Shown here: positions 17,634 to 22,009 of the stretch, in pieces
Layout: each line of letters begins with the position of its first letter
Position numbering within the stretch: the first letter of the stretch is position 1
Assembly (NCBI RefSeq): GCF_018977255.1
Contig: NW_024704742.1
Coordinates: 16,618,001-16,682,000, forward strand
DNA from: Callorhinchus milii
Taxonomy: Eukaryota
Reading direction: 5' to 3'
DNA length: 64,000 bases
Program-made: the position numbers and the translations under genes
Notes under the pieces: generated by a model
The model's database searches: none
What the model was told of the DNA's origin: nothing
Seen by the model: the letters and a program-made list of their open reading frames with translations, nothing else

Positions 17634-17849
17634 TTTTTACAACCAGGCTGGAAATCTGTTTATTCCAGAATTTTATGAAGCCCTGACAGTTTCCTGAAAA
17701 CAAATGCATTATTAAAACCGTGAAGTAGTGAGCTAATATTTTGGTCTAATCACAGCATGAGCAATGCACTACTTATCATGTAAACAAAACACAAAATACT
17801 GCAGATGCTGAAAATCTGAAACAAAAACATCTATGGAGAAAGGAAAGTG

Positions 17850-17887
17850 AGTCAACATTTCGGATCCATGACCCTTTGGCAAAACTG
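17850..17887 (-). ncRNA. Degenerate hammerhead ribozyme motif in Penelope 3' end
   Basis: Reverse complement AGTT-TTGCCAA-A-GGGTC-ATG-GATCC-GAAA-TGTT-GACT; the CUGANGA core is mutated. Confidence 0.6.
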
Positions 17888-17992
17888 GGGCAGAACTGTG
17901 GAGGGAGAGGCTTTTAAGGCTAATAGAGAAGGGGGAGGCAGGGCAGGAAAACAAAGGAGAAAATGGGAGAGAGGCCAAGGAATGATCGGATA

Positions 17993-18403
17993 AACAACAA
18001 CAACAACAAAATTACATTTATAGAGCGCCTTTCGTGTCAGGAGGACTTCCCAAGGCGTTGGACAGTCAGGGGTCAGGACCTGAGCATGGAGGAGGGGTGG
18101 GGTAGGGTTGAGGGAAGTCAGAGAAGCGGGAGGGCGACTGAAGGCACAATCGAAGAGGAGGGTCTTGAGACCGGTCTTGAGGGAGGCAAGGGAGGAAGCG
18201 AGGTGAAAGGACTGTGGGGGCAGAGAAGCTGAAAGCCCGGCCACCGATGGTAGGGTGAGTTGGGCGGGAGACATGGAGCAGACCAGAGCCCGCTGAATGG
18301 AGGGTGCGGGCAGGTTGGTAGGGAGCAGGTCAGAGCGGTAGGAGGGGGCAAGGCCATGGATGGCCTTGAAAGTGAGGACGAGCACCTTGAATTCGATCCT
18401 CTG
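17993..18403 (-). mobile_element. L2 LINE 3' fragment nested in Penelope 3' UTR
   Basis: ORF 17852-18385 LVLTFKAIHGLAPSY...LKTLLFDCAF; (GTT)n tail. Confidence 0.92.
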
Positions 18404-18840
18404 AGTGTTAAAGTGTTAATAATGCAAACCAAAGGGGGGGATTGCAACAAAATAGGAGAATTGAGGAGTTAATAATACAAAACAAAGTGGGGTGGGGGAA
18501 ATTGCAACAAAATAGGCAGACCAGAGAGAGAAAAGATTTGTCTGTGACCCAGATGATGTGGTACTGGTCACAGAAGAGGGGGAGGGGGAAGGTGAGGTCT
18601 TATGGTCTGAAATTGTTGAAATTAATATTGAGGTCAAAGGGCTGTAAGGTCCCCAGCAGATAAATGAGGTGCTGTTCCTCGAGCTTGCGCTGTGGCTCAT
18701 TGGAACAGCGTAGGAGACCGTGGATGGAGAGGTCAGAGCGTGAGTGGGAAGGAGACTTGAAGTGACAAGAAACTGGAAGCTCAGGGTTGTGCTTACGGAC
18801 AGAACGGAGGTGTTCGGGAAATCGGTTACCCAATCGCATT

Positions 18841-19689
18841 AATAAACTTGCTGAATGGGCATTTAAATGGCAAATACATTTCAATGTAGAAAAGTGTGAG
18901 GTGGTTCATTTTGGTAGATAGAATAAGGAAGTCACATACATCCTGGAAAATAAAAACCTAAATGGGGTAGAGGAGCAAAGGGACCTAGGGGTACACATAC
19001 ACAATTCGCTAAAAGTAGCAACACAGGTTAATAAGGCCATAAAAAGCAAACCAGGCATTGGGGTTATTTCTAGAGGGATAGAAATGAAAAGCAGGGAAGT
19101 TATGGTAAACTTATATAGAATCTTGGTTGGACCAGACTTAGAATACTGTGCAGTTCTGGTCCCCACATTATAGAAGGGATGTAGAGGCACTGGAGAGGGT
19201 GTAAAGGAGATTCACAAGGATGAACCCAGAACTGAGAGTTTATACCTATCAGGAAAGGATGAACATACTTAGACTCTTTTCTCTTGAAAAGAGGAGGGTA
19301 AGGGGTGACCTGATAAAGGTCGTTACAATGATGAAAGGTTTTGATAGGGTAGACATAGGAAAGATGTTTCCCCTTGTGTGGAGACCAAAACCAGGGACCA
19401 TCAATATAAAATAGTCACAAATAGATCAAATGGGAAAGTTAGAAGAAATTTCTTCACACAGAGAGTAGTGGGAATGTGGAACATGCTACCACAAGGAATT
19501 GTTGAGGCAAATAACACAGATGTATTTAAGGGGAAGCTAGATAGGTACATGAGGGAGAAAGGAATGAAGGTTATGCTTGAAGGCTTAGTTGAGGAAGGGC
19601 AGGAGGAGGCTCATGTGGAGCATAAACACCGGCATAGACCAGTTGGCCCGAATGGCCTGTTTCTGTACTGTATATTCTAATGTATTCTA
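18841..19689 (+). mobile_element. CR1 LINE 3' fragment nested in Penelope GIY-YIG domain
   Basis: FNVEKCEVVHFG, EEQRDLGVH, LFSLEKRRVRGDLI, RNFFTQRVVGMWN; ATTCTAAT tail. Confidence 0.93.
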
Positions 19690-20006
19690 ATCTGCGTTTC
19701 ATCTCCCCAATGTAGAGGAGAAAGGGCAGGTATTGCATCTCCTGCGCTGGCATGGGAAGGTGCCGGGGGGAGGAAAGCAACTGTTGGTGATGATGGAGGA
19801 ATGAACCAGGGGGTCACATAGGGAATGGTCCCTTCGGAATGCTGAGAGCAGATGGGAGGGAAAAATATGCTTAGTGGTTGAATCACACTGGAGGTGCCAG
19901 AAATGGCACAAAATTATTTGTTGAGGCTGGTGGGGTGGAAGGTGAGGACGAGGGGGACCCTATCACGGTTCTGGGAAGCGGGGCAAGGGGTGAGGGCAGA
20001 TTTGTG

Positions 20007-20324
20007 CAGTCCTGTAGCTCAGTGGTTAGACCACTCGCTTTGCAAGTGAGAGACCTGAGTTCAATTCCAGGCAGGGCGAAACCTTGGGCAAGTTTCCTTA
20101 CCCCACACGCCTAATAATAATCCCTCCAAAACCAAAAACAATAATAAATTGGTCATTTTCAATCCACGACTGTTTGTGGGACATTGCTGTGCGCAATTGG
20201 CTGCCGCGTTCGCCCACAAATATACAGTCAATTCACTTTACAGTATATTCTGTGAAGCGCTTTGGGACGTCCTCCCGACGTGAAAAGCGCTATATCAAAT
20301 GCAAGGATTATTATTATTATTATT
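20007..20324 (+). mobile_element. tRNA-Ala SINE, short subfamily, young, nested in Penelope
   Basis: Full head, body and (ATT)n tail; TSD-like ATTTG(T/C)G at 20000-20006 and 20325-20331. Confidence 0.95.
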
Positions 20325-20584
20325 ATTTGCGGGAAATAGGTGGACACGGTCAAGGGCCCTACCTACCACAGTGGATGGGAATCCTTGGTCGAGTAAAAAG
20401 GAAGACATTTCAGCTGCTCTGGTGTGAAAGATGGCATCGTCAGACCAGATGCGGCAGAGGCACCTACCCATGCCAGCGCAGGAGATGCAATGCCTGTCCT
20501 TTCACCTCCTCCCACTGTCCAGGGCCCCAAACACAGATTCCAAGTGAGACAGAGATTTACGTGTACTGCCACCAATGCAGTTTA

Positions 20585-20912
20585 TAATAATAATAATAAT
20601 AATAATCCTTGCATTTGATATAGCGCTTTTCACGTCGGGAGGACGTCCCAAAGCGCTTCACAGAACACACTGTAAAGTGAATTGACTGTATATTTGTGGG
20701 CGAACGCGGCAGCCAATTGCGCATAGCAATGTCCCACAAACAGTTGTAGATCGAAAATGACCAATTTATTATTGTTTTTGGTTTTGGAGGGATTATTATT
20801 AGGCTCTGTGTGGAGTAAGGAAACTTGCCCAAGGTTTCGCCCTCTGCCTGGAATTGAACTCAGGTCTCTCGCTTGCAAAGCGAGTGCTCTAACCACTGAG
20901 CTACAGGACTCC
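20585..20912 (-). mobile_element. tRNA-Ala SINE, short subfamily, young
   Basis: Full length; TSD CAGTTTA at 20578-20584 and 20914-20920. Confidence 0.95.
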
Positions 20913-21461
20913 ACAGTTTAATGCTTTTTTTAATGAATTCACTGCTCACACTGTAGTCTCCTCTACACTGGAGAGCCAAAATGCAGATTGGGTGACTGAT
21001 TTGCTGAACACATCCGTTCTGTCTGCAAGTACAACCCTGAGTTCCAGTTTCTTGCCGCTTCAACTCTCCCTCCCACTCACACTCTGACCTCTCCATCCAC
21101 GGTCTCCTACACTATTCCAATGAGCCACAGCGCAAGCTCGAGGAACAGCACCTCATCTGTCTGCTGAGGACCTTACAGCCCTCTGGCCTCAATATTGATT
21201 TCAACAATTTCAGACCATAACAACTCACCTTCCCCCTCCCGTTCTTCTGTGACCATTACTACATCATCTGGGTCCCAGTCACACCTTTTCTCTCTCTGGT
21301 CTGCTTGTTTTGTTGCAATTCCCCCCCACTTTTGTTTTGCATCATTAATCCCTCGTTAACCCATCATCCCCTGTCCTCTACCCCATTTTCTCCTTTGTCT
21401 TCCTTGCCCTGCCTCCCCCTCTCTGTTAGCCTTTAAAAGCCTTTCCATCCCAACATGTCCC

Positions 21462-21498
21462 AGTTCTGACGAAGGGTCGTGGACCCGAAACGTTGACT
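21462..21498 (+). ncRNA. Minimal type I hammerhead ribozyme motif (Penelope-associated)
   Basis: AGTT-CTGACGA-A-GGGTC-GTG-GACCC-GAAA-CGTT-GACT: intact catalytic boxes, 5-bp stem II, palindromic AACGTT stem III region, stem I AGTT/GACT. Confidence 0.8.
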
Positions 21499-22009
21499 CA
21501 CTTTCCTTTCTCCATTGATGCTGCCTGACCTGCTGAGTGTTCCCAGTGACTTCTGTTTTTTGTTTCACTATTTATCATAACTGCAGTAATATTTAGATTG
21601 CTGCCACAAGAAATGATCCAAATATGTTATTAAGTAAATATAATTTGTATTTCTGTGAATAAATCATAGAAAACTTTTGGAGATAGAAGACTAATAATAA
21701 TAGTACAACTTGTGTTCATGGTAGAAACATTTTTGCTTATTTTTCACATTACAGAAGTTTTTCAAAATGGAAAGATTTGAGCATTTTATGTAGGAATCAG
21801 AGTAACGCTCAATGAGCTAATTATTTCCCTATGCATTTTCAAAACTGACCAACATAGATGTAAAAATTTGCAATTTATTACATTGAAAAGCACTTCACTG
21901 TAAATACTGTCAGGTGACTTGACCATCATTGCTGTAGGCAAAGGTAGTGCCATTTGCAATAATAGAGTCTCATAATTAACCCCAAAGTAGTAATGTGAAA
22001 GGTGAATTT

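Follow-up and report, generated by a model that had tools for sequence, protein, structure and literature searches.

A head-to-head inverted Penelope-like element within one target-site duplication in Callorhinchus milii

A retroelement of Callorhinchus milii (assembly GCF_018977255.1, contig NW_024704742.1) occupies positions 17767 to 21578 of the stretch of DNA that was analyzed, 64,000 nucleotides in length (positions 16,618,001 to 16,682,000 of the forward strand) and referred to below as the window. It consists of two arms that are, as judged from their sequence, 5'-truncated pieces of a single Penelope-like element (PLE) of the Neptune type with a GIY-YIG endonuclease (EN). The arms lie on opposite strands, meet at their truncated sides, and are bracketed by one 13-bp target-site duplication (TSD). 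We are confident, short of certainty, that both arms arose in a single insertion event, and we regard one old insertion, in which reverse transcription would have been primed on both nicked target strands, as the best mechanism (probability about 0.65). The architecture and the probable mechanism of the locus are already known, in that they correspond to the published typical structure of PLEs (papers are cited by their PMC numbers). This is an old, dead copy without coding capacity, and no function has been demonstrated for it. Its parts are as follows.

17767-17779, plus strand: left copy of the TSD (13 bp), from direct sequence comparison.
17780-17818, minus strand: 39-nt PLE "tail," present in the left arm only.
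17819-17993, minus strand: 3' end of the left arm, without 35 nt behind the hammerhead that are present in the right arm and in two other copies in the window.
17850-17886, minus strand: left-arm minimal hammerhead in decayed form, with three core changes and an altered stem III palindrome, missed by the descriptor search.
17994-18407, minus strand: nested repeat with an (AAC)n end; many copies in the window, the best at 83-85%; no Pfam match.
18408-18462, minus strand: tandem duplication with 53-nt spacing in the 3' region of the left arm, from self-comparison.
18463-18840, minus strand: left arm, C-terminal half of the GIY-YIG EN and 3' untranslated region (UTR), with 79 open codons at 18603-18839.
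18841-19686, plus strand: nested 3' fragment of a long interspersed element (LINE) that splits the EN, from repeat self-comparison; no Pfam match.
19687-20002, minus strand: left arm, linker between reverse transcriptase (RT) and EN with CxxxxCxxC, from tblastn.
20003-20327, plus strand: nested tRNA-headed short interspersed element (SINE) of the left arm, with a tRNA match at 20008-20079.
20328-20461, minus strand: truncated 5' end of the left arm, RT thumb region, from tblastn with proteins P0026 and P0048.
20459-20461, no strand: head-to-head junction with the 3-nt microhomology GGC, readable by both arms; no palindrome.
20459-20585, plus strand: 5' part of the right arm, Cys linker and start of the EN, from tblastn.
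20586-20915, minus strand: nested tRNA-headed SINE of the right arm, inserted elsewhere in the element than its left-arm counterpart.
20937-21565, plus strand: right arm, EN (one stop, one frameshift), 3' UTR, and tail-less end, from tblastn.
21462-21498, plus strand: minimal type I hammerhead with an intact core, a 4-bp stem I, a 5-bp stem II that has a single unpaired base on its 5' side, and a palindromic stem III region.
21566-21578, plus strand: right copy of the TSD (13 bp), from direct sequence comparison.
21566-21588, plus strand: right TSD copy and flank, weakly tail-like in register, from alignment to the tail.
58217-58353: solo 3' stub (137 nt) of the same PLE family, with a 35-nt tail and a hammerhead with one stem II change.

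An earlier note on this DNA, made from the letters alone, had described a minus-strand arm and a plus-strand arm of one GIY-YIG element joined head to head, and self-comparison and tblastn bore this out. Self-alignment of the arms, a check that the note itself had proposed, recovered inverted homology in blocks; aligned segment by segment, the arms are inverted copies identical at 543 of 611 columns (88.9%, Kimura two-parameter distance 0.12). A value of 76% from a whole-arm alignment was dropped in favor of the segment-wise figure, the 5' parts having been misaligned. On the minus strand, tblastn placed the RT thumb (20328-20461), the Cys linker (19687-20002), and the EN (18603-18839) in the left arm, and, on the plus strand, linker and EN across 20459-21217 in the right arm. 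A protein search with the 79-residue open piece of the EN returned 506 proteins at E ≤ 0.001, and among named relatives the best are proteins predicted in skates and a stingray. Pfam, applied to 15 of the protein matches, reported GIY-YIG in nine and RVT_1 in five at E ≤ 0.01, several under the curated cut-off; both domains occur in P0026, P0033, and P0119, some again under the cut-off, in an order colinear with the thumb, linker, and EN of the arms. A Pfam scan of 11 fragments of the arms and inserts themselves gave no relevant match because the fragments are too broken. Other searches added little: the EN piece, used in a word-index protein search, gave 32 candidates, none at E ≤ 0.001, a PDB sequence search with P0119 gave three weak unrelated matches and no PLE structure, and DNA pattern scans for further copies gave none in metagenome contigs and none in viral contigs. 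The first matches in the ESM Atlas were unnamed (0.94-0.95), and one cluster there, with GIY-YIG in 15% of its members, is a lead only. Five proteins (P0003, P0007, P0019, P0080, and P0116) have a PLE EN piece fused to unrelated host domains (G-protein-coupled receptor, NYAP, RecQ5); these are probably chimeras of gene prediction.

The proposal that a Cys-rich linker of the Neptune type separates RT from EN is supported by the motif CxxxxCxxC, which is present in both arms and in 17 of the 27 protein matches long enough to show the region. A CX2-5CxxC linker typifies both Neptune and Nematis (PMC8557442), and the vertebrate PLE groups are Neptune and Poseidon (2026 preprint); the family would thus be Neptune, Nematis being set aside on host range only. 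Because both arms are truncated short of the RT core, the label reflects linker and host range and not a tree. In common with the Neptune clade (PMC8557442), the locus has the RT thumb, the linker, a C-terminal GIY-YIG domain with its Cys and His residues, and a hammerhead in the terminal repeat; it differs from the clade in its missing RT core, and hence has no tree placement. The CCHH residues of the PLE EN are complete only across the two arms, the CxxC and the first His being found in the right arm and both His in the left.

The evidence for one insertion comes chiefly from the outer boundaries. A 13-bp TSD had been proposed to bracket the whole element, and its two copies were indeed found at the ends of the arms, identical at 12 of 13 positions, with the single differing base being consistent with the 11% divergence of the arms. 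Across the whole window and on both strands, only two sites match the left 13-mer with two or fewer mismatches, and these are the TSD copies themselves. Of 20,000 random boundary draws, only 14 had a 13-mer with one or no mismatch at a distance of 10 nt or less from both ends. The size is typical for the family, since the solo stub at 58217-58353 is flanked by an exact 15-bp duplication (58202-58216 and 58354-58368). An older and more decayed 3' stub of the family lies at 26056-26190.

The point at which the arms had been said to join, 20460/20461, falls inside the junction. GGC starts the right arm; its reading as part of the left arm is deduced from an Arg codon in four homologues. Within the element, the left arm covers 372 nt more on its upstream side than the right. 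No separate duplication belonging to either arm marks the junction, where the longest shared words are 4 and 5 nt. That the pair was inserted as one event, as the earlier note had held, is therefore supported both by the TSD at the two outer ends and by the lack of an arm-specific duplication where the arms meet. The outer ends are not equivalent, an asymmetry that the note had missed: the left arm carries a 39-nt tail and the right arm none, the latter ending at the tail boundary without running into tail and flank.

These features suggest the following course of events. The GIY-YIG nuclease of the element would cut AT-rich DNA with a 13-nt stagger, and each 3'-OH would prime reverse transcription on element RNA. 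Synthesis of the left end would begin at an outer start site, so that the 39-nt tail is kept, and that of the right end at an inner start site, leaving it tail-less. Both complementary DNAs (cDNAs) would end early, one of them 372 nt further than the other, and be joined over GGC, and fill-in would give rise to the 13-bp duplication. Biochemical work on PAc, a Poseidon element of Anolis carolinensis, describes a purified PLE protein, predicted to be a dimer, that both cleaves and extends the two strands at AT-rich sites, with two RT start sites that bracket, and so define, the tail on either strand (PMC11167929). Priming on both nicked strands, as suggested in the earlier note, thus fits the anatomy of the locus and the published in vitro data; we infer it from that fit, and fold-back of a single cDNA remains its rival. 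The locus would then be a clean genomic example, in a Neptune-type element, of the in vitro picture in which both strands are extended from two start sites. On its own it carries little weight, being one more dead copy with a standard PLE footprint, but a genome rich in such copies could address whether one RNA or two serve as template and how the target influences the start of reverse transcription.

Several points weigh against a single insertion primed on both strands. The in vitro data come from an element of the Poseidon clade, not Neptune, and head-to-head copies have been read as products of self-priming, an interpretation favored for palindromic junctions (PMC3846280). Twelve sites at which one arm has a letter other than that of the family majority were taken from 40 listed rows, and two of them had no aligned partner. 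At the remaining 10, the opposite arm has the majority letter in eight cases, as private decay would lead one to expect, a third letter in two, and the altered letter in none. In a comparison of 58 nt, the arms agree with each other at 51 positions and with the solo copy at 51 and 56. The arms have no demonstrated private variant in common and no greater similarity to each other than to the solo copy, so that the case for a common age is made by the TSD and not by their sequence. Within these 58 nt the left arm is apparently the more decayed, with six private changes versus one, numbers too few to call. Finally, no joint that skips the insert, as an empty site would yield, was present among the 15 listed of 1,934, and the one run from another organism did not cover the locus. 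Two of the joints, 17822-21560 and 17829-21553, were considered as signs of rearrangement and rejected; they reflect family copies with both the tail and the 35 nt that the left arm lacks.

The strongest rival likewise invokes one event but derives the second arm by fold-back: the 3' end of the cDNA (GGC) would anneal to its own complement at 19762-19764 and be copied back, or an antisense template would prime itself (PMC3846280). The GGC microhomology would serve this route equally well, it accords with the self-priming interpretation just cited, and nothing in our data speaks for two templates. On the other hand, the junction has no palindrome, fold-back requires a 372-nt loop, and copying back offers no obvious reason why the right arm should stop exactly at the tail boundary beside the TSD. 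We consider it a serious explanation but a distinctly less probable one.

That the arms were inserted independently of each other, or that one arose later by inverted duplication on the spot, is quite improbable in our judgment; the 13-mer repeat would then stem from one of these events or from chance. Over the 58 nt compared, the similarity of the arms does not exceed that of unrelated copies, and the PLE family is abundant, so two insertions are conceivable. A second insertion, however, would have had to land exactly between the 5' end of the first copy and its TSD while leaving no TSD of its own. Nor is the right arm a copy of the present left arm, because it holds two segments that have been deleted from the left arm and shares none of that arm's inserts.

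A further reading, and a very improbable one, is that the right 13-mer is no true TSD but the mutated tail of the right arm itself. It draws on the finding that the right TSD copy and the next 10 nt align in register with the tail, including an exact 8-mer, with a score that only 2 of 1,500 anchored random windows reach (19 of 1,500 when the left copy is used). Such a tail would, however, need about five changes, indels among them, within 14 nt, as compared with the 11% difference between the arms, and would in addition have to agree by chance with 12 of the 13 bases on the left flank. That the inverted arrangement is an assembly artefact is scarcely credible: no contig crosses the central junction among the 25 pieces listed of about 214,300, but the arms differ by 11% and carry different inserts, and near-identical contigs connect unique flank and arm on the left (two runs, 17274-17805 and 17272-17805) and on the right (one run, 21536-22160), although they enter the arms by only 26 and 30 letters, the bar of the tool being 31.

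The resemblance of the target to the missing tail admits of another interpretation, namely that the target steers whether an end is tailed or tail-less. Tail-like DNA at the cut might pair with the RNA tail, or be recognized as it is, and so prime at the inner start site. We hold this idea to be doubtful. When windows were not anchored, 90-299 of 3,000 scored as high. The two TSDs of the family in the window, of 13 and 15 bp, share a 7-mer, which chance produced in 199 of 20,000 draws and in 378 of 20,000 AT-rich draws; both this 7-mer and the tail resemblance were spotted after the fact and concern one or two sites only. A tail-like target would fit the nuclease of the D. virilis Penelope, which recognizes tail-like DNA (as cited in PMC11167929). 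If true, the idea would mean a sequence-guided target preference in Neptune elements, unlike what is reported for PAc, an element of another clade whose priming sites in the RNA lack homology to the cut DNA (PMC11167929), whereas the target at our locus is weakly tail-like.

How does the locus compare with known insertions? The typical Penelope structure has an adjacent inverted end, a flanking duplication of 9-10 bp, and a one-sided 31-bp tail, with the head-to-head arrangement being the most frequent (PMC3846280), and a structure of the same kind has been set out in general terms (PMC8557442). Pen2a_Av and Pen2_Av of Adineta vaga (PMC3846280) and the scheme in PMC8557442 resemble the locus in having inverted 5'-truncated copies head to head, one TSD, and a one-sided tail of 30-40 nt. 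The TSD of the locus is longer (13 bp versus 8-10 bp in these cases), its junction has no palindrome or overlap, and both of its arms extend into the coding region. Unlike these elements, it also has no direct pseudo-long terminal repeat upstream, because its long arm stops in the RT thumb. In twin priming of the LINE L1, the second nicked strand primes a second cDNA and the inversion is joined over microhomology inside one TSD, but the product has one 3' end and non-overlapping pieces. At the locus, the 3' end would be the starting point for both primers, and the arms overlap.

The claim of a hammerhead at each outer end held in part. A descriptor for minimal hammerheads detected one intact motif in the window, that of the right arm (at 21466). 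In the left arm the core reads TTGCCAA for CTGACGA and GAAAT for GAAAC, and on account of these three changes the claim is valid for that end only as homology. Rfam at gathering scores reported no hammerhead, only tRNA-like heads, and minimum-energy folds were not better than those of shuffled sequences. As in the minimal hammerheads of metazoan PLEs, stem I is short, a base 5' of stem II is unpaired, and the stem III region is palindromic; those hammerheads are probable dimers of low activity (PMC4209133), and the PAc hammerhead motif required protein (PMC11167929). Self-cleavage by the lone hammerhead of the right arm would thus be unlikely. Pairs of hammerheads on opposite strands have been reported before (PMC4209133); those of the locus differ in that one is decayed and that they lie 3.6 kb apart because of the nested inserts.

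The note had further suggested that a read-through transcript could form long double-stranded RNA. RNA of the locus, were it transcribed, would be predicted to fold back on itself, with the best-matched stem being formed not by the arms but by the two young SINEs. These SINEs (20003-20327 and 20586-20915) are inverted, 258 nt apart, and 95.5% alike. Folded as RNA, 19990-20930 gave -673.5 kcal/mol (z = -51.7 against 20 shuffles), with the SINE pair as its stem, and this stem was the strongest per base of the three duplexes computed (-1.81 versus -1.68 and -1.46 kcal/mol). Sequence differences at the locus are swamped by family copies, so that adenosine-to-inosine editing is unreadable from them. 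Gene conversion between the two SINEs was considered and rejected, as each is closer to a copy at 60.3-60.7 kb (96.1-97.6%) than to the other. They resemble elements of the DeuSINE type; their 3' end is common to the L2-like repeats of the window.

Younger or unrelated nested repeats make up about 1.9 kb of the 3.8-kb span. Damage since insertion comprises four nested inserts and two deletions, none of them common to both arms; a deletion of about 95 nt at 19714/19715 removed the first GIY-YIG strand from the left arm. We take the insert at 18841-19686 to be a CR1-like LINE and that at 17994-18407 to be L2-like, the latter having no library match. The 17994-18407 insert is less similar to its best copies in the window than the host arms are to each other (89%); those copies may belong to other subfamilies.

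Finally, a scan of 150 of the 196 stop-to-stop frames from non-repeat sequence gave one match, below the cut-off, and identified no host gene; the element may nonetheless lie within an intron. An open frame of 280 codons at 26549-27388, with no Pfam match, resembles a decayed piece of an L2-type LINE open reading frame 2. Just left of the insertion, at 17410-17633, are 38-nt inverted repeats, 79% alike and 148 nt apart, which are possibly the remnant of a miniature inverted-repeat transposable element.

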